Assembly (NCBI GenBank): GCA_005799825.1
Contig: SYFT01000006.1
Span: 52,130-116,129 of the forward strand
Origin: Acidobacteriota bacterium
GTDB lineage: Bacteria; Acidobacteriota; Vicinamibacteria; Vicinamibacterales; SCN-69-37
Direction: 5' to 3'
DNA length: 64,000 bases
This document shows positions 9,120 through 55,849 of the stretch, piece after piece; the first letter of the stretch is position 1, and each line of letters begins with the position of its first letter. The notes under the pieces were generated by a model that did not search any database, had not been told where the DNA came from, and was given only the letters and a program-made list of their open reading frames with translations. The position numbers and the translations under genes were made by a program.

Positions 9120-12100
9120 CTAGAACCAGAGCGTCACGCCGGCGCGGAACACGCGCGGCGGCAGGATCGAGCTGATGCGGTCGATCGGAAGAACCGGGTT
9201 CAACGCCGTACCCAGCTCGCTCAGGTTGTTGCTCGCGAAGCCGAGCACCGGCGCCGAGTTCGTGATGTTGAATCCGTCAAGCGTAAACTTGACCCGGTTC
9301 TGACCGCCCCTGAACGTGAACGTTTTGTTCAGGCCAAGGTCCCACAGGAGCGTCCGCTCCAACCGCGTCGTATCTTCGGGCTGGAACCGCAGCGAGCTGT
9401 AGCTGATCGCGCCCGTGGTGCCACCATACACCTGACCGGGGCCGTTGATAAACATGGTGCGCTGCTGGCCATCGTTCATGTTGAAGTTCGTGGACGCCAT
9501 GATGCCCCAAGGCAGGTCATAGCTGCCGTTCACCTTGAACAGATACCGCGCGCCGGTGTTCAACCCATTGTAGTACTCGAGACCTGTTGGATTGCTGTAG
9601 CTGCCCAATGGGCTGTAGTCATTGCGCTTCTGCAGTGTGAGCGCGATGTTGAGCTGCCACTTGTCGCTGTACCGCTTGTTGAGGGTCAGGTCCACGCCCT
9701 GGTAGGTCTGGTAGCTCAAGCTCGTGTCGGTGACCGACGCGCCGGAGGGTCGCGCCAGCCCCTGCTTCACCACGTAGTAGTTCGCCGATTTGCCTGTCAC
9801 CGGATCTACGTAGACGTTGGGGGTCGTGTCATAGACACTCGACGCGGGAAAGCCCGCCGCCCCAGGCTCGAAGCCGATAATGTAGCCAGCGGTGCCATTG
9901 TCATACCGGCGGTAGATGTAGTCTGCCCCCACCGCCAGGTTGGGCACCAGTTCGTGCGAGGCGCCAACCGTGACTTCCCTCGTCCGGCTGAGCTTCGCAC
10001 TATCGGCCACGCGGTTGCCCGAGGCAACGATTGAGCCGTTCACAAAATTGCTTGGCAAGGCTGCTATGCCGACAAGTTCCGGGCGCTGGATCAATCCATC
10101 ACGATTCGCGTCTGTCCAGCAGCTGGCACCCGCCGTGACGCTGCACGCGCCACTGGCCTGGTTGGGACCCCAGCCCACAATGAAGTTGCCCAGCCCCGAC
10201 AGGGCGTTGGCCAGCGTGATCTTCGTCTGGTAGTAGTAGGACCCTGAGGCCTTCAGCGCCGTCTTGCCGTTGCCAAACAGGTCATATGTCATCGACACCC
10301 TGGGCGAGAACTGATGGAACGCGCGCAATTCTTCGACCTGGCCCGTCAGGGGGCTCAGGCCGCCCGTGGCCCCCTGTTCGCAGTAGCCCGGCAGAATATC
10401 CGGAATAATTTCATTCGCCGTCACGCACCCACCCAGCCACTTGGACTGCTGCCAGTCGTACCGCAGACCCGCGTTCACGCGCAGCCGCTTGTAGCTGTAG
10501 GAATCCTGGATGTAGCCATTGTACGACCACCAGTCGTTGTTGAGCAGGTAGTCGCGGGCTAGTTGCGCCTGGTAGGGCACCAGCCCGGTCGCCCCACCCA
10601 CGGCTGTGTAGGCCCTGCCGTCGCCACAGTTCGCGAGCAAGTTGCCCACGCACTGCACGACCGCCCGGCCGCCGCCGCTCGGGTGCGTGAACGACGTAAT
10701 CGGATTCTTGCGGTAGCCGACGCCGAACTTGAAGCTGTGGTCGCCGCCGAGGACGTTCGTCAGGAACAACGTGCCGTCCGTTTTGATGTCGAGCGACGGG
10801 CGGATGGTCTGGTAGTTACTGAAGAGTGAGCGGCTCAGGTTACCTGTGGTTCGAATCTGCTGCTGCTGGATGTTGAACATGCACTGAGGTTTGTTCGCCT
10901 GCGGATAGGACGACCGGTTGATGTCGCCCGTGTACCGCGTGCCGCCGCAGTCGCCCTGCGTGTCCTGATAGTCCAGGAAGAAGCCGCCGAACACCTTGGT
11001 CAGCGCCGTGTTGAACACGAGACGGTCGCTCGCGATGAACGTGTGCGTGAGCTGGTGCAGCGGGAGCGGGAAGTACTTCCAGTACGTTTCCGACGTCTGG
11101 ATGGTGGTCGCTTCCTTTTCCGTGAACGCACTCGCACCGCGGGCGTTGCGGAACTTGTTGTCGCTCGAGAACTGGTACTGGAACTTGTGCGCCGCATTCA
11201 ACTGGAAGTTCATCTTCCCTTGCTTGTTCTTGAGGACCGTAAGGTCGCTCGACAGGCAGTCCTGCACCGTTGCGAGGTTCCCATAGGTCAGGGTGCCGCC
11301 CGTCAGCAACGTGCCGGCGCGCTGGGCGTCGGCATACTGCACGCAGGCGGGCCGCGCGCGGTCGAAGAAGTTCACAACGCCGGCATTGATCGACGTCTTG
11401 TCGACCGCTGCCCAAAACCAGAGGCGGTTCTTGATGATCGGACCGCCGTACTCGCCCGAGAAGGCGTAAATATTCTTGATCGGCGCGCCCGACAAGAATC
11501 CGCCCGTCCCACGCGAGAACTGCGTTTCGGTCACGTTGTTCGCCTGCATCTGGTCGTTCTGGAACGTGCTCAGCGCCGAGCCCTTGAACACGTTGCTGCC
11601 GCTCTTGGTCACCAAGTTGATCGACAGGCCCGACGACTGCACCGACACGTCGCCGCCGCCGTTGGTCACCGAGATCTGGTCGAACGAGTCAAAGTTGAAG
11701 TACGCCGGCGACGAGTTGGACGAGAGGTCCGTGATTGACCCGCCTTCCAAGTTCCACTGCACGTTGCTACCCGTGCCACGCGACTGCAGGCCGACCTGCT
11801 GGCCCGACGACGAGCCGCCGACGTTGAGGCCCGCCTGCACACCGGGGGTCATGTTGATAATCTGCCACGGGTCGCGCGCGGTCGGAATCTTCTCGAGGAT
11901 TTCCGACGTGAACGTCGCACCCGACGTAGTCTTCTTCGTGTCGACGACGGGCGCCGCCGCCGTGACGGTAAGTTCTTCCGACATCGCGCCAACTTCCATC
12001 TTCATGTCGACGGGCGCGTTAAAGCCGGAGGTAATCACAATACCGTTGCGTACGACCTTCTTGAAGCCGCTCAGTTCAAATGTCACCGAAAACGTGCCGT

Positions 12101-44235: not shown

Positions 44236-47200
44236 CTACCGAGCCGGAAGTGCAAGTGCGCGAGCGAGGAGGATGGCATCAAGCTCTCCAGAGACGGGCA
44301 TCTGTCCCAACGACTGTCGCGCGGCCACGGCGAGCCCGTCGATTGGGATGCCGCCGCCGGCGCCGGTGGCGGCGATGACGGCCTCGAAGTGCGCCTGCGC
44401 TTGAGCGGGCCGGCCCTGTCGTTGCGCAACACGACCGAGCAAGAACCTGATCAGCCGCTCCTCGGGGTCGTAGGGCTTGCCCTGGCCGAGGCGCTCGGGC
44501 CACTCGAGGCCCGCGGTCAGATGCGTGACAGCCTGTGCCCATCGACCTGCGTTGTAGTTGACCAACGCAGCAAGCACATGCGCCTGCACGTACATCTGAT
44601 GGGTTTCGCGCGAGTGCTCGGAGGGCAACACTCTAGTGACGCTCAGCACCGCGAGCGCCTCCATCGGCCGTTCGAGGTGCAGCAGCGCGCGCACATGGAG
44701 CAGGTCCAGGTTGAAGTCTTCTGGAAATTGCTGCCGGGCCCGAGCGGAAACCGCCAGCGCCTCCGCCCACCTGGCCTGCTTCTGGTAGTGCTGAATCAGG
44801 GGGATCCGAACGGTGCGATCGGTCCCAGCCAACGTCTCGGCGCGTTTGAGGTCGGGTTCTGGATCCCCGCCGGCCTTCTCAACAAGGTGTGCCCGGGAAA
44901 CATAGAACGCAGCCACATCAGGGGTGTTGCCCAGTGGCGTCAGCAGTTGTGCGGCTTCCGGCAGCCGGTCGAACGCCCACAGATTAAGCGCCCGCAGATA
45001 GATCCAGCTCCAATGATTGTTCTGTTGCGCCGCCCATCCGAGGACGGGCAGCGTCTCAAGCCGGTACGGAAACACCAACGAGACATCCGCGGAACCGAGG
45101 GCCGCCGCGTCCTTCTTGAGATAGGTTAGCCAGGCGCGCAGCAATGGGTTTTTCATATGCGCCGTGGCCACTTCGAGGAGGGTGATGGCATCAGCCGCCT
45201 GGCCACGGTTCGCATACCCGATGGCCAACTCAAGCACCGACTGGTCAGGAAACTCGCTGCGTAAACCGTTCAGGAACGCCGCAGAAGTGGCCGCACCAGG
45301 CATGGACAGAAAGGCTTCCGCCCGCACGAAGTGGTGCAGGGGATCGAACTCGATCAACTGGGCAGACGCCGTGGAGGCCTGCGCGGCGTTGCCCGTTTTG
45401 CGACCCACAAGCGCGAGGATCTGCCAGGCGGACAAATTCAGCCGGTTGTAGTCGATCGCGATGCGCGCGTACCGATCGGCCTCGCTCATGTCGCCACGAA
45501 CCAGAGCCAGTTCGGCCAGTTGCACATTCGCGGCCGATCGGTAGGCCAGCGCACGTGCGGCCCAGCCAAACGCGTCGCGGGCATCCGCGGTCTTGCCGAT
45601 CGCGCGATACAGATTGCCCGCGACGAAGTTCGCCTCGGCGTCGTACGCGTCGAGACGCAAGGCCCGAACCACGTGTGCAAGGCCGGCATCGAACCGCGCG
45701 CGCCGATACTCGAGGTCGCCCATGGCAAGCAGGGCGCCGCGATGCCAGGGACTTTTTACCAGCGCCTCGTCGAGCATCGGCCTCGCCTGCTCGTACCGTC
45801 TACCTTGAATGAGTTCCTTGGCCTCACAGACTAACCTGTCGGCGTCAGGGATGGACGCCTCAGCGGCGGCTTCCATCTCGAACGGGCGCGCCAGCGTCCG
45901 TGCAGCCGGATCCGACGAATAATCGACGCCGAGGCCCCGCAGTTCCACGCGATACGACGTGCCCGTCGCATGGGGCACGGTCGTCGTGAACGGCTCGAGC
46001 GGCGCCAGTGTCACCGGTTGTTCCAGCACCAACTTGCCACCCGACCACGCGCGCAGTGTATCGGAGGCCTGTCCAAACGCATTCACGCCGATCTGTAACT
46101 GGCCGCCGGCCTCTCGTACAAACATCGCAGCCTCTCGCGAGGCATCCGTCAATCCGCCAAGGCCCTCAAGCGGAAACCAAGTCTCCGTCCACTGGTCCGT
46201 CGCAAAGGGATCAAAACCCGCCTGCGTGATGGGATTGACGTGCGCATCCGGGGCGAACTGCACCAGCAGTCGTCCGGCCTGGTACTCCACATATTGGCCG
46301 TCGGTGTCGGTCAGTAGGTCTTCCCAGATGCCGCCGGCGCGCGAAAGCGCCCACAGCCACAACTTCTGCCCGGGCATCTCTTCGTGCCTGGCCCAGTGGC
46401 CGAACCCGTACCCGGCGTCGCGATAATAGCCGCCGAAGAAGTCCTTGAGTTCACCGACCACGTGAAAGGACTTGTTGGACCCGAAGGTGTTGTTCTTGTA
46501 GACCGGCAGGAACCGGTCCTGCCCATCGCGTGGCCACGATTCTCGCGCGCCTGGATGCGTCAGATACGCGTTACCGGGGATGGACATCTCCAGGTCGTCC
46601 TTCGCGAACGCCGCGGCCGTCATCCAGTTGTAATATGGCTGCTCGATCGCCGTCCCGTTGTGCCATAACACGTTTGTTTCAAACGACGCTCTGTCGGACG
46701 GCAGCCGGATCTCCACCCGCCATTCCGTACGTGAGGACAAGTCCATCGTGCCGACGATGCAGCTCACGCTGCCGTCGGGGTTTTGCCTGAGCACATAGTC
46801 GACGGGCGTGGCCGTGGAGGGCGTGTGGCCAATGACGCCGAAGTTGAACTCGATGCCACCCGAAGTCCAAGGTCCGCGCAGGGCGATGTTGCGGAACTTG
46901 ACGACCTCGTTTCGATAAATGAATTCGTGTCCGGTCTTTTTCACGCGCGCGCCCCAGACCTTGCCGCCGATCTCGGGCAGCACAAAGACCTCGATCAGAT
47001 CATTCTCGAGCGTCACGACCTTCCACTCACGCGGCGTGCCTTCGTGTTCATACCCTTCGAACGCGTGGTACGGATACAGCCTGGTGTCCTTCGTGAGAAT
47101 CGGCACCGGGTTAGGTTCGGAGAAGGCGTATGTCTTGAGAGTCTGCAGGCCTTCCGAGATTCGAGCTGCTTTGACGTTCTGTCCGGTGTGAACGGGTGCG

Positions 47201-47247
47201 GCTGCACACACCGAGGCAAAGGTGACGAGTACCCATCGACGGACCAT
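44236..47247 (-). CDS. DUF5107-domain protein fused to TPR repeats
   Basis: 1003 aa. The N-terminal ~400 aa match my memory of DUF5107 (YAFSEPNPVPIL...RLYPYHAFEGY...WKVVTLENDLIEVFVLPEIGGKVWGA...GPWTSGGIEFNFG). The C-terminal half is TPR-like. Confidence 0.7.
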   Translation of the reverse strand: MVRRWVLVTFASVCAAAPVHTGQNVKAARISEGLQTLKTYAFSEPNPVPILTKDTRLYPYHAFEGYEHEGTPREWKVVTLENDLIEVFVLPEIGGKVWGARVKKTGHEFIYRNEVVKFRNIALRGPWTSGGIEFNFGVIGHTPSTATPVDYVLRQNPDGSVSCIVGTMDLSSRTEWRVEIRLPSDRASFETNVLWHNGTAIEQPYYNWMTAAAFAKDDLEMSIPGNAYLTHPGARESWPRDGQDRFLPVYKNNTFGSNKSFHVVGELKDFFGGYYRDAGYGFGHWARHEEMPGQKLWLWALSRAGGIWEDLLTDTDGQYVEYQAGRLLVQFAPDAHVNPITQAGFDPFATDQWTETWFPLEGLGGLTDASREAAMFVREAGGQLQIGVNAFGQASDTLRAWSGGKLVLEQPVTLAPLEPFTTTVPHATGTSYRVELRGLGVDYSSDPAARTLARPFEMEAAAEASIPDADRLVCEAKELIQGRRYEQARPMLDEALVKSPWHRGALLAMGDLEYRRARFDAGLAHVVRALRLDAYDAEANFVAGNLYRAIGKTADARDAFGWAARALAYRSAANVQLAELALVRGDMSEADRYARIAIDYNRLNLSAWQILALVGRKTGNAAQASTASAQLIEFDPLHHFVRAEAFLSMPGAATSAAFLNGLRSEFPDQSVLELAIGYANRGQAADAITLLEVATAHMKNPLLRAWLTYLKKDAAALGSADVSLVFPYRLETLPVLGWAAQQNNHWSWIYLRALNLWAFDRLPEAAQLLTPLGNTPDVAAFYVSRAHLVEKAGGDPEPDLKRAETLAGTDRTVRIPLIQHYQKQARWAEALAVSARARQQFPEDFNLDLLHVRALLHLERPMEALAVLSVTRVLPSEHSRETHQMYVQAHVLAALVNYNAGRWAQAVTHLTAGLEWPERLGQGKPYDPEERLIRFLLGRVAQRQGRPAQAQAHFEAVIAATGAGGGIPIDGLAVAARQSLGQMPVSGELDAILLARALALPAR

Positions 47248-47439: not shown

Positions 47440-47646
47440 GCGCCCCTAAAACGCTGCTCGCACATCGTCGCGTTCCGCCTTGGCTTCCACCTGAACGGAA
47501 ACAGTCATGCGGACGAAACCGCGCCGGGATCCAGGTTTGGCCTGGCAATCGTGCGCGACCTCGCCGAAGTCTCTGGTGGGGGCATCAGGCTCAGCCGGTC
47601 GCACCTGGGCGGGTTGCGGGCCAAGCTCACGCTCCCAGCGGCGTGA
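47440..47646 (+). pseudogene. C-terminal remnant of a sensor histidine kinase (HATPase_c G2-box region only)
   Basis: The tail of ORF 47332..47646 reads ...GSRFGLAIVRDLAEVSGGGIRLSRSHLGGLRAKLTLPAA, resembling GSGLGLAIV...GG.I.L.S..GG....L.LP. No HisKA, N-box or G1-box is found upstream in any frame. Confidence 0.4.
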
Positions 47647-47668
47647 GCGGCGCCCGACGAAATACGGA

Positions 47669-48055
47669 CTACTTGACGGTGAACTGGAAGGTCCCGGTCA
47701 GGATGTGGCCGTCGGCGCCAGACGTCCTCCAACTGACCGTGTACACACCCGGCGCCACCGTCCCGACAACGGGTGCGACGACAGAGTTGTCGGCCTTGCC
47801 TTCGGCCATCCCCGGGGCGACCTTGCCGAGTTCGATCTTGCCGGCAGGCCCCTCAAGGACCAGACCGCTCACCGCGACGATGGGGGCCTGTGAAAACCAC
47901 ACCTGAATCCGCGCGGGCGCCGTGGCCACGGTGGCGTCTGAAACCGGAAACGTCTTGTCCACTTTCAAATGGGCAGAGACCACCGCCACACAGGCGAAGA
48001 GGATGACCATGAGTGGCCGAGGGGACTGCAACTGCGACCGAGACATTTGCCTCAT
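47669..48055 (-). CDS. copC: CopC-domain periplasmic copper-binding protein
   Basis: I prefer the ATG at 48055 (MRQMSRSQLQSPRPLMVILFACVAVVSA, then HLKVDKTFP...). His is the first mature residue. It also has PGVYTVSWRTSGADGHILTGTFQFTV. Confidence 0.8.
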   Translation of the reverse strand: MRQMSRSQLQSPRPLMVILFACVAVVSAHLKVDKTFPVSDATVATAPARIQVWFSQAPIVAVSGLVLEGPAGKIELGKVAPGMAEGKADNSVVAPVVGTVAPGVYTVSWRTSGADGHILTGTFQFTVK

Positions 48056-48235
48056 CGTAGCAGGCTCTGCGCCGGGCTTAAAAACTGACCGAGCCATGAC
48101 ATGACAACAGCCAGCGCCTCCTCTTGCTGGCGCTCGCGACTGATCCAGGCACCATCAGGTCGCCGGTGACCCACACAAGGCGGATGCGGCAATGCCACAC
48201 CTTCAGGCGCGCCCGTCGGCTTTCAGCCACACCGG

Positions 48236-49819
48236 TCATGCGCGCGCAATCGCGTCGGCGGACCTGAGCGCGAGGGCGACGAACGTCAACGTGCCGTTCG
48301 TGCAGCCGCCGGTGGGGAGCGTTGGTGAGCCCACCACGAACAGATTCTCGTGATCGTGCGCGCGGCCGTGTGAATCCACCACGCTCGTGGCCGGGTCGGC
48401 GCCCATGCGACACCCACCGGCGGGATGATCCTGGTACGACAAACCGCTGACGTTGCCCATCCGCCCATCATTAGCCGTCGCCATGGTCGCAAAGACCTGT
48501 TCGAGGTGAATACGAGTGGCCGCCTGGCGGGCTTCCGAAGCCGAATCAATCTTGTGGCGCACGACGGGCAGCGGATCGCCCCACCGGTTCTTCGCCGTCG
48601 GGCTCAGCGTCAGGCGACTGTCGGGGTCCGGATGCACATCAAAGTAGCCGCGGACACGGGCAGTGCCGCGTGTGGTGCGCGTCCGCCAGTCGTCGAGAAG
48701 CGCATCGCCAAGCAGCAGCGATCCATCGGCCGCGCGTAACCTCGGTGTGCGACCGCCGCCGTTCTCCCACACGCGCAGATCGTGACGCACATAGGGCGTG
48801 TTTGGGGCACAGCGGAAGTACTTCCGCGAGATGAGGCTGTGTTGCTCATTCATCCCCGGATAGATCTTCAAGTCCGCATCGACCGTCGTCTGGTACGCGA
48901 GATGGCCGGTCATGTAGCGGCCGACATGGTCTGACCGGTTCGCCAGACCAGTCGGGAAACGACTGTTGGCCGACAGGAGCAGCAGGTGCGGGCTCCACGT
49001 GTAACCCGACGCCAGCACAAAGATGCGCGCGCGGTACTCGTCGGTGCCGCCCGTGCCATCCTGCTTCGCGGCATGCGCCACGGCGATGCGTGACGAGCGC
49101 TCGTCCAGATCGAGTTTGCGCACCAGAGTGTTGTCGTGCAGCTGAATGCGCTTCGCGGCCAGTAGTTGCTTGAACGTGTAGTCGGGCGAATACCGCGCGC
49201 CGGTCGGGCAGATTTCGCAGGTATTGCAGCGCAGGCAGATGCTGCGTCCGCCGTAGCCGTTGACGGTGTTCTTGGCCTGGGGCGTCGTCCAGAACGGCGT
49301 GCCGCTTTTGTCGGCCCAGGCCTTCAACTGGATCAGGTTAAAGGACATGTTCATGGGCGCCATCGGATACGGCTCGGACCGCGCGTCTTCCTTGAGCGGG
49401 CCGGGTTCGCCCGACACACCGAGGCGGCGCTCGGCCTCGCAGTAGTACTTCTCGAGTTCGGTCCAGGTGATTGGCCAGTCAACGGCGAGTCCGTACATCG
49501 ACTTCAGCCGCGTGTCTTCTTCCGAGAATCTGTTGCAGACGCCGCCCCAGTGCAGAGCCGACCCACCGACCGCCATCGTGCGCGAGATGATGCCGTCGGC
49601 GCTCTGGTCGGCCACGTAGTCGCCGGGCCACTGATTCTCGCCGTAGTCGAGGCTGCGCTTGCGGTAGTCCGCACGGTTCTCGACATCAAACAGGGACTTG
49701 CCAGCTTCGACGACGATCATGGAGAGGTTGGGACGAAGGGTGGCGAGTTTCTCCGCAACCATCGCGGCCGTGATGCCGCCGCCGATAATGCACACATCAC
49801 TTTCGTGGACGGCCATCAC
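48236..49819 (-). CDS. GMC-family FAD oxidoreductase (gluconate 2-dehydrogenase flavoprotein-like)
   Basis: 527 aa with DVCIIGGGITAAMVAEKL, the C-terminal GMC motif HPAGGCRMG and NLFVVGSPTLPT. Confidence 0.85.
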   Translation of the reverse strand: MMAVHESDVCIIGGGITAAMVAEKLATLRPNLSMIVVEAGKSLFDVENRADYRKRSLDYGENQWPGDYVADQSADGIISRTMAVGGSALHWGGVCNRFSEEDTRLKSMYGLAVDWPITWTELEKYYCEAERRLGVSGEPGPLKEDARSEPYPMAPMNMSFNLIQLKAWADKSGTPFWTTPQAKNTVNGYGGRSICLRCNTCEICPTGARYSPDYTFKQLLAAKRIQLHDNTLVRKLDLDERSSRIAVAHAAKQDGTGGTDEYRARIFVLASGYTWSPHLLLLSANSRFPTGLANRSDHVGRYMTGHLAYQTTVDADLKIYPGMNEQHSLISRKYFRCAPNTPYVRHDLRVWENGGGRTPRLRAADGSLLLGDALLDDWRTRTTRGTARVRGYFDVHPDPDSRLTLSPTAKNRWGDPLPVVRHKIDSASEARQAATRIHLEQVFATMATANDGRMGNVSGLSYQDHPAGGCRMGADPATSVVDSHGRAHDHENLFVVGSPTLPTGGCTNGTLTFVALALRSADAIARA

Positions 49820-50421
49820 CGGCCTCCCTGTCGCGCGGGCCAGGGTGCCGGCGCACTCTCCGAACCGGCAAGGCCGCGGCAGTCTTCACGGTTGATGGCC
49901 GCGCGGTACGCCAGGTTGTAACCCACCGGCCCGTGGAAGAAGTGCCCCATGAAGTCGGCCACCACATGCACGCCGGACGGCCGCGCCGGCAACTGGGTGA
50001 CGCGTTGCGGCGTCGTCAATAAGGCCTCGACGATCGCGCGCCGAGGCGCGGCTGCAAGTGCAGCCAGCGATTCAGCGCCACCGGCCCGCGCGGCGGCTTC
50101 AAGCGCGGCTAGTTGCGCGGGGTAGGTTGCTGTTGGCGGTGGTCCGGTCGTTCTGAGCCTGGGCGAACCATATCCGGGCCCGATCTCTGCGCCCTCGCGG
50201 TAGTTCGCCACCCACTCCGCGAACTGGGTGACGGCTTCGCCACGCTCCTCGGTCGTCAGCGCCGATGGCAGCGCCACATCGGCGACGGCGCGAAGAGTCG
50301 CGAGGTGGCCGGACGTCAGGACCGTCGCCTGCGAGCGGCCCAGTGCCAGCGCCTTGATCGAAGACAACGGCCATGCGGCCACCAGCGCGGCTGCCCAGCG
50401 AAGCAGGAGGCGTCGTGTCAT
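49816..50421 (-). CDS. Tat-signal small subunit (gluconate 2-dehydrogenase subunit 3-like)
   Basis: 201 aa starting MTRRLLLRWAAALVAAWPL. It has 4-nt ATGA overlaps with both neighbours. Confidence 0.65.
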   Translation of the reverse strand: MTRRLLLRWAAALVAAWPLSSIKALALGRSQATVLTSGHLATLRAVADVALPSALTTEERGEAVTQFAEWVANYREGAEIGPGYGSPRLRTTGPPPTATYPAQLAALEAAARAGGAESLAALAAAPRRAIVEALLTTPQRVTQLPARPSGVHVVADFMGHFFHGPVGYNLAYRAAINREDCRGLAGSESAPAPWPARQGGR

Positions 50422-51050
50422 TGTGGCGGCTCCTCATAGCGGTCAATCCGCAGGTACGGGATCTCGCGGAACGGCGGCAGTCCCGCGGCCGCCGCAATTT
50501 CCTCAAGACCCGCGCGTTCGTGAAATTCTTTTCGGTCGCGGTCGATGACGACGGTGTTGGGATACAGCGGCGCCAGGCGCCGGAACTCCGCGTCGATCAA
50601 TTTGAAACGACTGACGGTCTCTTCAACATTCTCGAACTCGCGTTTGCGCAGCCGGATGTGTTTTTCGATGGTGTCGGTGCTCGATGTCAGCACGATGGTG
50701 ATATCGGGGTTCCAGTGATCGCCCACGACGAGCACGTCTCGCAGCGCGGAATGATACCGGGCCGGGTACTCGGCGATGTGCGCCTCGAGCGTGATCCGGG
50801 CGCCCTCAAAAAACACCACGGACCCCGGCCGCTCGTGAGCGGCGGCGTCGCGGTAGTTCGCGTCGTAGATCCAGCCGAAGTACGCGGTCACGCCCACCGG
50901 GTTCAGCCCGGCTTCGATGTCGGCCAGCACCTCGGGCGCCCAGACGCCCTTTTCACCTTCGCCATATGACCCGTGGTGATAAAGGTCGCCCAATTGTCGA
51001 ACCAGGGTGCTCTTGCCCACTCCGGGCCCGCCGACGATCGCCACGCGCAT
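50418..51050 (-). CDS. P-loop NTPase, deoxynucleoside-kinase / NMP-kinase-like fold, family not recognised
   Basis: I prefer the ATG at 51050 (MRVAIVGGPGVGKSTLVRQL). The TTG-started upstream extension in the ORF track is Cys/Trp-rich and overlaps the MFS gene. A LID-like PDITIVLTSSTDTIEKHIRLRKREFE segment is present. Confidence 0.6.
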   Translation of the reverse strand: MRVAIVGGPGVGKSTLVRQLGDLYHHGSYGEGEKGVWAPEVLADIEAGLNPVGVTAYFGWIYDANYRDAAAHERPGSVVFFEGARITLEAHIAEYPARYHSALRDVLVVGDHWNPDITIVLTSSTDTIEKHIRLRKREFENVEETVSRFKLIDAEFRRLAPLYPNTVVIDRDRKEFHERAGLEEIAAAAGLPPFREIPYLRIDRYEEPPQ

Positions 51051-51063
51051 GAGGCGAATCGTA

Positions 51064-52275
51064 TCAGCCCTGAGCGGGATGCGAAGTGCCCAGTCGAAGG
51101 GTCTCTCTGTCGGGAAGCAGAAACCCAAGCAAGCCAATGAGCGGCAGAAATGCGCACACCCGATACACAAACGCGATGCTGGTGACGTCGGCCAGCCACC
51201 CGAGGACGCCTGCTCCGGCCCCAGCCACCCCGAATGCAAATCCAAAGAAGAGTCCCGACACCAGCCCCACCCGATGCGGCACCAGTTCCTGCGCAAACAC
51301 CAGGATGGCTGAGAACGCAGATGACAACACCAGCCCAATCACCACGCTCAGCACCGTCGTCCAGAACAGATCGGCGTAGGGCAATATCAGCGCGAACGGC
51401 AGGATGCCGACGATGGAGATGAGGATGACGGGTTTGCGGCCGATGCGGTCGCCCACCGGGCCGCCGATAAAGGTGCCTGCCGCGACGGCGCCGAGAAAGG
51501 CGAAGAGGTGCACCTGCGCCTGTTGCACGGACACGCCGAAGCGGTCGATCAGGAAAAACATGAAGAAGCTGACGAAGCTCGAGACGTAGACGTACTTTGA
51601 GAAGACCAGCGCCAGGAGGATGGCCAGCAATCGCTGCACCGTCGCGCGCGGCAGTTGATGCAGCGGGCGCAGGTGCCCGGCGGCGCGGCGCCGTTCCTGG
51701 CCGGTCGTCCAGTACCAACAGCCGATGCGCCACAGGATCAGAATCGCGAACAGTGCCACCAACGAGAACCAGGCCACGCTGCCCTGTCCGCGTGGCAACA
51801 CGAAGAAGGCCGCGAGAAGCGGTCCAAGGGACGTGCCGAAATTGCCGCCCGTTTGAAACAGTGATTGGGCCAGGCCGTGTTTGCCGCCTGAGGCCAGTCG
51901 CGCGATACGCGACGACTCCGGGTGGAAGATCGACGACCCGATTCCCACAAGCGCGGCCGCGGCCAGCAGCCATTCATAGGAGTTGGCGGACGCCAGCAGG
52001 AGGAGTCCGGCCAGCGTGAAGCCCATGCCCACCGGCAATGAATACGGATGTGGCCGCGAGTCGGTGTAGTGACCGACCAGCGGCTGCAGGAGCGATGACG
52101 TGACCTGATTAGTCAACGTGATCATCCCGATCTGCCAGAAGTCGAGTGAGTAGGTGCCCTTGAGCAGCGGATACAACGCCGGCAGCAACGACTGAAGCAA
52201 GTCATTCAGCAGATGGCACACACTGAGGGCGATCAGAACCGGCAGTGCCGGGCGGGGCGGCGTGGTGCCTGGCAT
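51064..52275 (-). CDS. MFS transporter, Fsr (fosmidomycin-resistance)-like subfamily
   Basis: I prefer the ATG at 52275 (MPGTTPPRPALPVLIALSVCHLLNDLLQSLLPALYPLLK...LLQPLVGHYTDSRP). The ORF-track extension to 52677 overlaps the EVE gene in another frame. Confidence 0.8.
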   Translation of the reverse strand: MPGTTPPRPALPVLIALSVCHLLNDLLQSLLPALYPLLKGTYSLDFWQIGMITLTNQVTSSLLQPLVGHYTDSRPHPYSLPVGMGFTLAGLLLLASANSYEWLLAAAALVGIGSSIFHPESSRIARLASGGKHGLAQSLFQTGGNFGTSLGPLLAAFFVLPRGQGSVAWFSLVALFAILILWRIGCWYWTTGQERRRAAGHLRPLHQLPRATVQRLLAILLALVFSKYVYVSSFVSFFMFFLIDRFGVSVQQAQVHLFAFLGAVAAGTFIGGPVGDRIGRKPVILISIVGILPFALILPYADLFWTTVLSVVIGLVLSSAFSAILVFAQELVPHRVGLVSGLFFGFAFGVAGAGAGVLGWLADVTSIAFVYRVCAFLPLIGLLGFLLPDRETLRLGTSHPAQG

Positions 52276-52757
52276 CAGCGCGTTGCGGATTTCAGCTTCC
52301 GGCCGAGGCGTACGACGATGTTGTATTCGCCTTTTGTGGCGGGCTGCACCGAGAGGCGGCTGCCCTTCTGGATCACTTTCATGTCTTCGAGGCCCGGCGT
52401 GGCCTTCAGCGTTCCGAGCGGCACCGTGCCGGCAAACTCTTCTTCGAAGGCAAGGTCCACCATGAACCAGAGGGGCTTTGCTTGTGTACTTGCGGCGTCG
52501 AAGTACTTGTGGCCCTTCTTCCAGGACAGGTGATCGGGATACCCGGCGCGGGCGATGGTGGCGAGGCCGGTGACGCCTGACGGATCGGCGTTGGACGCGT
52601 AGAAGAGGACTGCGTCGCCCTCCTGCATCTGATCGCGCATGAAGTTGCGCGCCTGATAGTTGCGTACGCCTTCCCAACTCGTGCGGCCATCCCTTTTGAG
52701 ATCCGCGATGGTATACGCGGCGGGCTCACACTTCATCAGCCAATATTTCTTCGCCAT
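52275..52757 (-). CDS. EVE-domain (PUA-like) protein
   Basis: 160 aa: MAKKYWLMKCEPAAYTIADLKRDGRTSWEGVRNYQARNFMRDQMQEGDAVLFYASN... Its stop shares one base with the MFS start (TGATG). Confidence 0.8.
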   Translation of the reverse strand: MAKKYWLMKCEPAAYTIADLKRDGRTSWEGVRNYQARNFMRDQMQEGDAVLFYASNADPSGVTGLATIARAGYPDHLSWKKGHKYFDAASTQAKPLWFMVDLAFEEEFAGTVPLGTLKATPGLEDMKVIQKGSRLSVQPATKGEYNIVVRLGRKLKSATR

Positions 52758-52784
52758 CGGGAAAGGATACCAGCGTCGGCTGGT

Positions 52785-54098
52785 TTATCGTCGCGACCGG
52801 GCCACGTACAACAAAGAGCCGACGGCCACACACGCTCCGAACGCGCGCCACTCCTTATAAGCGAGGCCGGTCAACAGCCACGCGATGATGAGGCAGGTGA
52901 CCCATGGCAGGACTGTGGCGAACGGGACGCGGAAAGGCGTCTGGCCTTCGGTGGTGATGCCGGACGAGCGGAGCTTCCACGACGCCAGCGCGCAACCCAG
53001 ATAGAGCGCGAGCGCGGACACGTTGGCGAGCAGCGCCAGTCGTTCAAACGTCCCCGACAGGGCCAACATCAGCGTGATCGCGGACTGGGCGATGACCGAG
53101 GCCGGTGGTGAATGAAATCGCGGGTGGACTGCGGTGAACATCCGCGGCAGGAAGCCATCGCGCGCGAAGGCAAAGACCATACGCGGCATTGAGAAGGTCA
53201 TGCCGCCCAGATACCCGAACATCGATACCGACGCGCCAACAAGCAGCAGCGTACGAGCCCAGCCGCCCAGTGAGGCGTTCGCCGCGTCGGCCAGCGGCGA
53301 CGCGGTCGCCTGTACCAATCCGGGCCCCAGAATGCCCTGCGAGACGATCTGCAGCAGCAGATACAACGTGGTAATGCCGATCATCGCCAGAGCGATGGCC
53401 CGTGGCACCGTGCGCGCGGTGTCACGCACTTCGCCGCTCGGCACCAGGGCGACCTCGACGCCGGCGAACGCGAAGATCAACAGCAACGACGTGCGCGCCA
53501 CGTCCGCCGCGGCCGGCGCGGCCGTCCACGTAAGATTGTCGGTGTTGATGAAGAAGAGTCCGGCCACGGCCAGCAGCACGAGCGGCACCAGCTTCGCAGC
53601 GGTCGCCACACCGTTCAAGCGCGCCGCCAGGCCCACGCCGCGGACATTGATGAACGTCCAGAACGCGAAGGCACCCACCAGCACCGCAGCATTCATTGCC
53701 TGGCTGCTCGCCGCAGGCACAAGGAGGCCAATGCTGCCGGCGAACACTGTGGACACCGCCGCACTGGCGAATGTGCCGAGCATCCATAACAGGAGCCCCG
53801 TGATGAAGCCGGCGTACGGGCCGAAGGCGGTGCCGACGTAGGCATACGGCCCACCAGTGAGCGACACGCGGCTGCCGGCATCGGCGATGCACAGAACGAT
53901 CAGCCCCATCGCGACGGCGCACACGAGATAGGCCACCGGCGCGGCCGCGCCGAGTGAACCCGCCACGTTGGCCGGCAGCCGAAAGATGCCACCGCCAATC
54001 GTGATGTTCACGATGGCGGCCGCGAGGCCAAACGTGCCCATGACACGAACGAGCCCCTCAGTGGGGCTGTGGGGAGCAGCAGAACGCGATGGAGCCAT
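52785..54098 (-). CDS. APC-superfamily amino-acid permease
   Basis: 437 aa and about 12 TM, with FGLAAAIVNITIGGGIFRLPANVA. Confidence 0.8.
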   Translation of the reverse strand: MAPSRSAAPHSPTEGLVRVMGTFGLAAAIVNITIGGGIFRLPANVAGSLGAAAPVAYLVCAVAMGLIVLCIADAGSRVSLTGGPYAYVGTAFGPYAGFITGLLLWMLGTFASAAVSTVFAGSIGLLVPAASSQAMNAAVLVGAFAFWTFINVRGVGLAARLNGVATAAKLVPLVLLAVAGLFFINTDNLTWTAAPAAADVARTSLLLIFAFAGVEVALVPSGEVRDTARTVPRAIALAMIGITTLYLLLQIVSQGILGPGLVQATASPLADAANASLGGWARTLLLVGASVSMFGYLGGMTFSMPRMVFAFARDGFLPRMFTAVHPRFHSPPASVIAQSAITLMLALSGTFERLALLANVSALALYLGCALASWKLRSSGITTEGQTPFRVPFATVLPWVTCLIIAWLLTGLAYKEWRAFGACVAVGSLLYVARSRR

Positions 54099-54247
54099 GT
54101 GGGGCGCTAGGGTAGCACCCCTGCGTGGGCCGTCAGGGCGGAGTGGTGGAATGAGTCTGAGGATTCACCATGTAGGACATGAAGATCTATGAAGGGCGCG
54201 GGATTGGGGGCCCGGCTTTGCCGGGGCCGCACGATCGAAGGGGCGCG

Positions 54248-54433
54248 TTACTGAATCTGGGCGCGGCCGTCGGCGCGGCCATCCTCGAGGTCGATCTGAT
54301 TCAGCTTCTCGCCACACTCGGTGGTCGTGCATACGCCCTTCTCCACCATGACGCGCTGCATAATCTTGACGGCGAGCGCGAGTTCGCCGATCGCTCGTTC
54401 CAGCTTCTCGGCGTCCACGCCTCCACTCGGCAC
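54248..54433 (-). CDS. small hypothetical protein (boundaries uncertain)
   Basis: 61-aa ORF with a GTG start and high third-position G+C. The sequence is AEKLERAIGELALAVKIMQRVMVEKGVCTTTECGEKLNQIDLEDGRADGR. A stem-loop (GGGCCCGGC-TTT-GCCGGGGCC region, 54209-54235) follows it. Confidence 0.3.
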   Translation of the reverse strand: MPSGGVDAEKLERAIGELALAVKIMQRVMVEKGVCTTTECGEKLNQIDLEDGRADGRAQIQ

Positions 54434-54649
54434 TCTGACCGACGCCTCGGCTCAGGCGCGCGCCGTCTCACCACGCAGTTTGTCGATCTGCGTGTGCTGA
54501 TAGATGTCGACAATCTAGTTAATCAATCCCACAGAGTCTGCCTCTAGCCCTTCACAAACGACCCTGTAGGCTCCGCAGTTCAGGGCGGGCCGTCGGTCAG
54601 CGGAGCGGCCTCGGCTCTAAGCCGGGCCTGGCCCAGGGCGGCTAAGTGA

Positions 54650-55432
54650 TCACGAAATTAACTCGGGCTCAATGACCCGCTCCACCACCTGTCCTCCCGC
54701 GACACTGACGTGATACACCTTCGCGCCCGCGCGGGTGGCGACAACGCGCTTTACCGAGTTGTCTTCAAAGTAGATCCCCGCGTCGTTGTCGCACGCGTAG
54801 CCGGGCTTCATCACGCCCGACCCGATGAGTTTCTGATAAAGCAGCCGGCGGCCGGGCTCCGCGTCGTAGTGCGGCGAGTGACTCCCCTTGATGAATCCGA
54901 GCCCTTGCACCGTGGTCAGTTCCTTCGGTCGAGAGTCGGTCGTTCCTTCCTCAAACCAGCAGAGCGAGCCTGCGCTGGCGCCGCCGAGCACGATGCCGCG
55001 GTCCCAGGCCAGGCGTAGCACGTGGTCGATGCCCTGTGCCTTCCAGATGGCCTGCTGATTCAGCGTGTTGCCGCCAGAGCAGACGATGCCATCAACCGAA
55101 AGGAACACCTCCTCCCAGCTGCGGGTCTGGCGCGTGCTGGCGATGAAGCTCTCCTGGACCGAAGGCTCAACGTTGAGTGAGGCGCAGTTGCGAAACCAGG
55201 TGATGATGCCGGCGGGCCCGTCGGCGGAAGCGGTCGGCAGATAACAGAGTGTTGGCCTCGGCTTGCCCGTGAGTTCGGCCAGGTAGCGGATGAACGCTGT
55301 GCCAAAGCCGCCGCCCGCGATCAGAATCTTGCGCGTCTCGAAGTCGAGTCTGAGAGCGGATGTCGTCCGGCCTGCGGCGAGCCCGGCGGCCCCCAGAACT
55401 GACGTGATCACAAACTCGCGTCGCTCCATCAC
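54650..55432 (-). CDS. peptidase S51 family (dipeptidase E / cyanophycinase-like), Tat signal
   Basis: 260 aa starting MMERREFVITSVLGAAGLAAG. It has CSGGNTLNQQAIW and VLGGASAGSLCWFE. Confidence 0.75.
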   Translation of the reverse strand: MMERREFVITSVLGAAGLAAGRTTSALRLDFETRKILIAGGGFGTAFIRYLAELTGKPRPTLCYLPTASADGPAGIITWFRNCASLNVEPSVQESFIASTRQTRSWEEVFLSVDGIVCSGGNTLNQQAIWKAQGIDHVLRLAWDRGIVLGGASAGSLCWFEEGTTDSRPKELTTVQGLGFIKGSHSPHYDAEPGRRLLYQKLIGSGVMKPGYACDNDAGIYFEDNSVKRVVATRAGAKVYHVSVAGGQVVERVIEPELIS

Positions 55433-55534
55433 TCCTCCATCTCTTAGACGTGGCCCCTATCAGACCTGCGTTGATGTGACCCGCACACGCATCGCGCTGA
55501 GCCGATCCGAAAAGACCGCGTCCGCGCGAATCGG

Positions 55535-55849
55535 CTACCACTCGTACAAGAACACTTCAATCGGCCGCGACATCGCGACCCAACCGCCGATCAGCAGGCT
55601 TTCGCACACGATACCGGCAAAGCGGCTTGCGGGAGCGAAGGTCTCAACGGCATCGCCGAGCGCGATACATGTCGCGAGAAACGCTACACCAATCAGTAGG
55701 CTTCTGCGCCCCAGCCGGAGCACTTGACGCAGCGTCTGCCGCATGGCATGGGCTCGGCATTCGAAATGGTCGCGCACGGCGATGTGCACGATTGGGCGTC
55801 GGGTCGAACGAGTTGAACAACTGGTTGAAGTCCGAGACCCGCGCCTCAA
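55535..55849 (-). CDS. small two-TM membrane protein; N-terminus unclear (TTG 55849, GTG 55789 or ATG 55744)
   Basis: The C-terminal part LRLGRRSLLIGVAFLATCIALGD...CESLLIGGWVAMSRPIEVFLYEW looks genuine. The first 19 codons of the ORF-track frame look non-coding, while an alternative frame there looks coding (see findings). Confidence 0.4.
   Translation of the reverse strand: MRRGSRTSTSCSTRSTRRPIVHIAVRDHFECRAHAMRQTLRQVLRLGRRSLLIGVAFLATCIALGDAVETFAPASRFAGIVCESLLIGGWVAMSRPIEVFLYEW

Follow-up and report, generated by a model that had tools for sequence, protein, structure and literature searches.

The DNA analysed here (referred to as the window) is a 64,000-nucleotide stretch of contig SYFT01000006.1 from an Acidobacteriota bacterium, and our subject is a block of five consecutive genes on its minus strand. 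An earlier note on the window had described these genes as tightly packed and had proposed that they form one module in which a substrate is oxidised in the periplasm, imported and phosphorylated. Open reading frames and junctions were read straight from the minus-strand sequence (48150–52900) and, together with Pfam assignments, bore out both the packing and the gene identities. In the direction of transcription the block comprises a stand-alone PUA-like EVE protein (52275–52757, 160 amino acids, PF01878), an Fsr-like major facilitator superfamily (MFS) transporter (51064–52275, 403 amino acids, MFS_1), a P-loop kinase-like protein of an unnamed family with a Walker A motif and a nucleoside/nucleotide-kinase fold (50418–51050, 210 amino acids; referred to as the kinase), a small ("hitch-hiker") subunit with a twin-arginine translocation (Tat) signal (49816–50421, 201 amino acids) and the catalytic subunit of a GMC flavoprotein dehydrogenase with an iron-sulfur (Fe-S) cysteine motif (48236–49816, 526 amino acids, GMC_oxred_N and GMC_oxred_C). 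Three of the four junctions are as previously described: the EVE stop and the MFS start share one nucleotide (52275) in a TGATG (52277–52273), the MFS and kinase genes are separated by a 13-nucleotide gap (51063–51051), and the kinase stop overlaps the small-subunit start in an ATGA (50421–50418). The fourth had been given as ATGA at 49816–49819, which required correction: the sequence reads GTGATG (49819–49814), that is TGATG with a 1-nucleotide overlap if the GMC gene starts at ATG, as it does in its relatives, or GTGA if it starts at GTG.

In order to place this packing in context, we compared it with spacing across our own codon-usage gene calls for the window and for loci L001–L086, in which starts are approximate and gap figures accordingly rough. 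Amongst co-directional neighbour pairs, 34% lie no more than 15 nucleotides apart and 13% overlap by four nucleotides, and because close spacing is so common in these genomes a lone tight junction says little. Runs with at least four consecutive tight junctions were found only twice among approximately 960 runs, and the packing of the five genes is denser than average. A further reason for caution comes from 11 other genomes (L011, L013, L015, L017, L018, L029, L032, L034, L045, L053 and L056, around position 10001), where a DPP4-like S9 peptidase gene ends in an ATGA overlap with the start of the kinase gene and genes for a P-type ATPase, SUI1 and an HrpB helicase follow further downstream: 4-nucleotide overlaps here thus connect genes that have no functional relationship. 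Scans for promoter and terminator consensus sequences over 47500–55600 gave nothing above shuffled expectation and therefore speak neither for nor against a single transcript. Rfam returned no riboswitch or RNA family within the window, and PADLOC assigned none of the five proteins to a defence system.

Synteny around the kinase gene was counted over the best 80 of 231 loci, each with 10-kb flanks, by tblastn with the window proteins and by clustering of gene calls. These loci stem from a scan of a one-genome-per-species collection using the closer alignment (A2), which covers the close clade only, so that 231 is a lower bound; across them the kinase is 72–97% identical, and the metagenome-assembled genomes (MAGs) concerned are labelled mostly Vicinamibacterales/Acidobacteriota and Gemmatimonadaceae, with a few Acidimicrobiia or others. 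The small-subunit and GMC genes stand beside the kinase gene in only four of the 80 loci (L007–L010), which in the kinase tree all group with the window in a single clade. An EVE gene lies within three genes of the kinase in 17 of the 80, or in 15 of 59 when the count is restricted to loci whose flanks reach 3 kb or more on each side, and an MFS gene lies no more than two genes upstream in 20 (Fsr-like in 13, Sugar_tr-type/MFS_1 in seven). The observed arrangements are EVE-MFS-kinase, EVE-MFS-x-kinase, MFS-kinase-EVE, kinase-EVE with overlapping stop and start, and MFS'-kinase-MaoC-EVE, where the prime denotes the different MFS and x an intervening gene; in L020 and L052 an unnamed gene (F43) separates the Fsr-like MFS from the kinase. 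The presence of an EVE gene at the head of the block had earlier been thought unexpected, and this assessment has to be reversed: EVE is the most recurrent neighbour of the kinase, and the GMC gene is the newcomer.

The same counts bear on the view that there is no functional link at all, with unrelated genes packed by chance in a compact, high-GC genome and the proximity of EVE, MFS and kinase representing a decaying ancestral remnant. This would agree with the general spacing figures, with the S9 peptidase overlap, with the absence of EVE and MFS from most loci and with the many other contexts of the kinase gene, which is also found between aldo-keto reductase and flavin monooxygenase genes, in the order AlkA-kinase-MarR and next to YceI. 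We nevertheless consider it rather unlikely: EVE and MFS genes have remained close to the kinase although their order changed at least once, with EVE either in front or behind, the MFS is exchanged for one of a different family in some loci, and the outer flanks around these arrangements are unrelated. For a single-copy gene, a position within three genes of the kinase would be expected by chance in about 6 of several thousand cases, and the small-subunit/GMC pair is invariably adjacent.

This pairing is also seen when synteny is centred on the dehydrogenase, where the small-subunit gene lies immediately upstream of the GMC gene in every case (window, L001, L087, L089, L090 and L091). In L087 and L089, with small subunits 68–75% identical to that of the window, the five-gene order is kept and the outer neighbours differ. 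In L090 and L091 (small subunit 62–65% and GMC 81–83% identical, with an identical cysteine motif) the EVE, MFS and kinase genes are not nearby; instead an Amidohydro_1 gene (L090, 5787–7004; L091, 5805–7004) overlaps the small-subunit gene in an ATGA, giving the order amidohydrolase, small subunit, GMC. L052, which carries the EVE-MFS-x-kinase arrangement, and L090 belong to one assembly (JBBQDM01, contigs 1 and 16, respectively), so that, barring a binning error, the two halves of the block are separable in a close relative. The recurrent partners of the dehydrogenase are in fact hydrolases, either the amidohydrolase upstream or an alpha/beta-hydrolase downstream, which hints at a substrate bearing an ester or amide.

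From this pattern we favour, with a probability of roughly 55%, the interpretation that the block is a lineage-specific juxtaposition of two independently evolving units in one Vicinamibacterales sub-clade, probably co-transcribed. The first unit, consisting of the small subunit and the GMC protein, would be a periplasmic FAD (flavin adenine dinucleotide)/iron-sulfur dehydrogenase of the Burkholderia glucose dehydrogenase or Gluconobacter fructose dehydrogenase type: the Tat signal of the small subunit would carry the cofactor-loaded GMC protein across the membrane, where it would oxidise an alcohol or sugar and pass the electrons to an acceptor encoded elsewhere. The second unit, EVE, the Fsr-like MFS and the P-loop protein, would be arranged around a conserved cytoplasmic kinase, with EVE as a modified-base-binding protein; a functional tie among these three is suggested by their recurrent proximity. 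The dehydrogenase unit would have been placed downstream of the kinase unit in this sub-clade, and the kinase would not act on the product of the dehydrogenase.

In the case of the dehydrogenase, the resemblance to periplasmic enzymes noted earlier is supported by homology. The GMC protein matches the alpha subunit of Burkholderia cepacia's FAD-dependent glucose dehydrogenase (BcGDH; 6a2u_B and 8hdd_A, E=8e-65) and the large subunit of fructose dehydrogenase (FDH) from Gluconobacter (7w2j_A, E=5e-53), in both cases over residues 5–524 and hence essentially its full length. An N-terminal FAD-binding GxGxxG motif (GGGITAA) begins at residue 12, His89 (in LHWGG) aligns with His105 of BcGDH, and Cys194, Cys200 and Cys203 align with Cys212, Cys218 and Cys222, which in the crystal structure are the 3Fe-4S ligands, with His105 linked to FAD (PMC6719666); the His and Asn positions of the C-terminal part are likewise conserved in the alignment. 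An additional cysteine, Cys197, changes the motif from CC-x4-C-x3-CP in BcGDH to C-x2-C-x2-C-x2-C-P in the window (CLRCNTCEICP, residues 194–204, 49208–49240), and this sequence is identical in five relatives. The alignment thus points to a bound Fe-S cluster, which could be of the 3Fe-4S or the 4Fe-4S type. A small Tat-signal subunit, putatively of the Gluconate_2-dh3 type, precedes the catalytic subunit, an arrangement that may correspond to that of the two characterised enzymes: the small subunit of the window begins with the twin-arginine signal MTRRLLLRW, and PF13618 (Gluconate_2-dh3) is matched by 14 of 22 homologues (best E=2.4e-8), with the window protein itself scoring 20 bits, below the cut-off of 23.4. 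The GMC protein has no signal peptide of its own and starts directly with the FAD-binding fold, which together with the twin-arginine small subunit fits the hitch-hiker export described for this dehydrogenase class (PMC6719666); the GMC protein is accordingly predicted to be exported by Tat hitch-hiking on its partner. Unlike BcGDH and FDH, the window pair has no multihaem cytochrome c subunit, as had been stated before: there is no CxxCH motif in any called protein of the 64-kb window, and no CxxCH cytochrome beside the pair in L001, L087, L089, L090 or L091. The genes that neighbour pairs of the window type also differ from those two systems in being hydrolases. Taken together, sequence comparison supports the small subunit and GMC protein as resembling periplasmic FAD dehydrogenase complexes, without the cytochrome c subunit. 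The small subunit contains a single invariant cysteine (Cys181, 49879–49881) within an IxRxxCRGL motif, for which an inter-subunit disulfide is a possibility.

The kinase had previously been reported as a P-loop protein with a Walker A motif and a LID region similar to deoxynucleoside kinases (dNK) that could not be placed in any family. Both motifs are present (GGPGVGKST, residues 7–15; IRLRKREFE, residues 132–140), and the protein indeed falls below all curated thresholds: in Pfam it scores 19.9 bits against dNK (PF01712) and 21.4 bits against AAA_28 (PF13521), with cut-offs of 27, and 13.3 bits against Thymidylate_kin, also sub-threshold, and every NCBIfam match is far below its cut-off. 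Its fold, on the other hand, can be placed, being of the kind found in thymidylate kinase (TMPK), deoxycytidine kinase (dCK), dNK and the ribosylnicotinamide-kinase domain of NadR (NadR-RNK). An AF2 model (predicted local distance difference test score, pLDDT, 94) compared with the PDB by Foldseek matches best to thymidylate kinase, dCK and dGK (template modelling scores of 0.6–0.72 at 14–22% identity), with Fap7 and the NadR kinase domain ranked lower, and its best structural matches among viral proteins are deoxynucleoside (dNK) and dTMP kinases. A single-sequence search of the PDB returned noise and weak NadR matches; the family profile was required to match the NadR ribosylnicotinamide-kinase domain (E=6e-9), followed by dNK and TMPK, and the PHROG "thymidylate kinase" matches the LID region (E=5e-6). 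Polynucleotide, antibiotic and gluconate-type kinases were considered as candidates, and none is among the top structural or profile matches.

Comparison of 29 close and distant relatives reveals as invariant G12-K13-S14 of the Walker A motif, E31-G32-E33 and R135-x-R137-xx-E140. The last of these is the Arg-rich LID that matches the dNK profile, and the E-G-E lies after strand 2, seemingly in the place of the E-P/E-P-G-G motif. The kinase shares with dNK, TMPK and NadR-RNK the fold, the Walker A motif, the LID and probably a Glu-containing motif after strand 2, but differs from them in the invariant E-G-E itself, in its sub-threshold scores and, within the close clade, in a C-terminal tail of the form GLPPFxExPY. 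We conclude that the kinase constitutes an unnamed family of its own within the nucleoside/nucleotide-kinase fold class, and that its substrate is most likely a nucleoside or nucleoside monophosphate. Near relatives comprise 3136 clusters at E≤0.001, of which the best 120 listed are 76–97% identical to the kinase and two carry the NCBI name Vicinamibacterales; their JGI names vary between deoxyadenosine/deoxycytidine kinase, nicotinamide riboside kinase and thymidylate kinase. A library clustered at 50% identity contains essentially a single cluster of full-length kinases, together with approximately 25 full-length relatives at 27–35% identity. The GLPPFxExPY tail (residues 190–199; 50451–50483) is conserved and unstructured, is absent from these 27–35% relatives, and may be a partner-binding or active-site-capping element. 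Within L007–L086, kinase identity is 72–78% when MAGs with the labels Vicinamibacterales, Gemmatimonadaceae/Gemmatimonas, Acidimicrobiia and Hyphomicrobium are compared, for which unusually strong conservation, horizontal transfer and mislabelled or mis-binned contigs are alternative explanations. Two kinase loci of one MAG (L025 and L044; CAWFCS01, contigs 27 and 15) have similar SnoaL-SGDH contexts, which reflects a duplication or, alternatively, redundancy of strains within the bin.

Genomic contexts were obtained for six of the distant relatives (27–35% identity). One is encoded directly after a dCMP deaminase gene on three contigs, with ThyX and SHMT genes nearby on the longest; another is followed by a YgjP-like hydrolase gene, two adjoin HAD_2 hydrolase genes, and one shows no theme in its context. 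The 34%-identical relative P0224 (on the 66-kb contig ERZ1426827) is divergent from a gene with PF18723 (HMUDK_hel, the helical domain of 5-hydroxymethyldeoxyuridine (5-hmdU) DNA kinase), with UDG and a MazG-like gene in the surroundings, and this contig may be a DNA-hypermodification or nucleotide-sanitising island. These contexts support a nucleotide-related substrate for the wider family. EVE, MFS and GMC genes are absent from the contexts of all six distant relatives, and the EVE link is therefore not supported as an ancient feature.

The EVE protein itself covers almost the whole of PF01878 (E=8e-47, 159 bits against a cut-off of 23, profile positions 1–144 of 145) and, as a full-length domain, is strongly homologous to stand-alone EVE proteins of solved structure, PSPTO5229 (2eve, E=2.5e-35), PP5205 (2g2x) and human THYN1. 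Neither a dNK-like kinase nor an MFS gene is named as a neighbour in a published survey of the genomic contexts of EVE (PMC7641849), and its closeness to this kinase family has apparently not been described so far. For the transporter, MFS_1 is matched with E=1e-35 and no specific NCBIfam (Fsr) model matches; the Fsr label derives from the JGI annotation of homologues with 71–87% identity as [quoted passage not shown]. Such a name invites the suggestion that MFS and kinase are a resistance or detoxification pair, combining efflux with inactivating phosphorylation, with EVE and GMC as bystanders. Antibiotic phosphotransferases are found amongst the small P-loop kinases of this fold class, and the presence of a transporter within two genes upstream of the kinase in a quarter of the counted loci (20 of 80) would also agree with such a pair. 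We regard this as very unlikely, since the 72–97% identity of the kinase across the 231 loci is a degree of conservation that one would sooner expect of core metabolism than of resistance genes, the transporter that takes the upstream place in other loci belongs to the Sugar_tr type, a family with many metabolite importers, and antibiotic kinases are not among the top structural matches.

The single pathway proposed by the earlier note would run from periplasmic oxidation of a sugar or polyol by the GMC protein and small subunit, via uptake by the MFS, to phosphorylation by the P-loop kinase, in analogy to the Pseudomonas 2-ketogluconate route. As a formal list of activities, the parts do correspond to Gad, KguT and KguK, in that both sets contain a periplasmic flavoprotein dehydrogenase that has a small subunit, together with a transporter of the MFS type and a kinase. 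In addition, the junctions are tight up to and including the ATGA overlap of kinase and small subunit, the order is conserved within the clade of the window, and sugar acids are substrates of some P-loop kinases of the same broad fold class, an example being gluconate kinase. The correspondence does not extend further, as the linkage is not conserved, the MFS is Fsr-like, the window block has no cytochrome subunit, and the kinase has a nucleoside-kinase fold, in contrast to the PfkB-type sugar kinase KguK. Several of the results above also speak against a pathway: the GMC gene adjoins the kinase in one shallow clade only (4 of 80 loci), GMC orthologues with 81–83% identity occur elsewhere with an amidohydrolase, the two halves lie on different contigs of one MAG, the structural and profile neighbours of the kinase are nucleoside and nucleotide kinases, its distant relatives are found in nucleotide contexts, and the MFS carries the label of an efflux family. 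The earlier note had itself named lack of synteny elsewhere and membership of the P-loop protein in a family such as the nucleotide kinases as observations that would speak against its model, and because the five-gene order is restricted to the clade of the window and the kinase has a nucleotide-kinase fold, the pathway model fails on both. We thus consider it highly improbable, with some residual probability for the one clade in which the order is kept.

Weighing the interpretation as two juxtaposed units, several points stand against it or against parts of it. For the dehydrogenase unit, the small subunit has diverged so far that no match to the solved gamma subunits was obtained by sequence, by profile against the PDB or by Foldseek with a model of pLDDT 80. 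For the kinase unit, the kinase passes no curated threshold, so that its putative substrate class derives from fold and context; it has no recognisable DR[YH] motif as in TMPK or ERS motif as in dNK, with FFEGAR after strand 3 (D/E-G in distant relatives). About three quarters of the kinase loci have no EVE or MFS gene nearby, and because of this the kinase unit is a tendency rather than a fixed operon. The Fsr family is of the efflux type, and the Fsr-like label is therefore a poor fit to an uptake-and-trap role for the transporter. With regard to the independence of the two units, the five-gene order and its tight junctions are kept across the clade down to a small-subunit identity of 68%, and the juxtaposition may give some selective or regulatory benefit; moreover, the MAG contigs and taxon labels on which the synteny pattern depends may be mis-binned.

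A more specific proposal for the kinase unit is that kinase, EVE and MFS form an undescribed small system handling modified nucleosides or nucleotides, in which the kinase would phosphorylate a modified (deoxy)nucleoside or deoxynucleoside monophosphate from nucleic-acid turnover, EVE would recognise the modified base, and the MFS would move the nucleoside or a by-product. The grounds for this are that EVE stays beside the kinase through reordering in several clades, and that distant relatives adjoin a 5-hmdU-DNA-kinase-domain gene with UDG and MazG in one case, and dCMP deaminase and ThyX in another. Binding of a free modified mononucleotide by a PUA-like domain is reported in a preprint (bioRxiv 10.64898/2026.01.15.699771). 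We put the proposal forward tentatively and judge it to be unlikely.

The genes flanking the block vary between relatives. In the window, an APC-family amino-acid permease gene (52785–54098, minus strand; AA_permease_2, E=2e-42) ends 27 nucleotides upstream of the EVE gene; it is also present in L001–L003, and the flank is variable elsewhere, with a TonB-dependent receptor gene in its place in L087, and divergent PadR and MacB/FtsX genes, followed further upstream by an amino-acid permease gene, in L089. On the other side, the window retains the remnant 5' end of an alpha/beta-hydrolase gene (48169–48239, minus strand), the ATG of which overlaps the GMC stop in an ATGA. A complete alpha/beta-hydrolase gene follows GMC with a 4-nucleotide overlap in both L001 and L089, and homology of the window to L001 stops 70 nucleotides into the 261-amino-acid Abhydrolase_5 gene of the latter. 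Compared with L001 (12812–16862), whose kinase is 97% identical, approximately 3.7 kb are missing from the window between GMC and CopC, and the absent stretch encodes the Abhydrolase_5 protein, a histidine kinase and a response regulator. The CopC gene of the window (47669–48097) begins approximately 140 nucleotides downstream of GMC and is followed on the same strand by a gene for a 1003-amino-acid DUF5107 and TPR protein (44236–47247); the order GMC-CopC-DUF5107 is common to L098 and L099, and in L001 CopC is followed by MbnP and then a MauG-type peroxidase.

If the interpretation as two juxtaposed units is correct, it would be a mistake to annotate this cluster, or to mine it, as a new pathway of sugar-acid catabolism, and stop/start overlaps in high-GC soil genomes would need support from synteny before functional coupling is assumed. 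The parts belong to known kinds; what is new is the unnamed, highly conserved kinase family, its recurrent EVE/MFS neighbourhood and the cytochrome-less Fe-S GMC variant with a CxxCxxCxxCP motif. The latter would be a two-subunit dehydrogenase with an altered cysteine motif in a class, the Fe-S GMC enzymes, that is of biosensor interest. The kinase family is highly conserved in abundant, poorly studied soil phyla (labelled Vicinamibacterales and Gemmatimonadaceae), where it could stand in, as a non-orthologous replacement, for a core nucleotide kinase, and its link to EVE offers a testable handle on the ligands of stand-alone EVE proteins: should a system for modified nucleosides indeed exist, the stand-alone EVE proteins of bacteria would gain a concrete small-molecule context.

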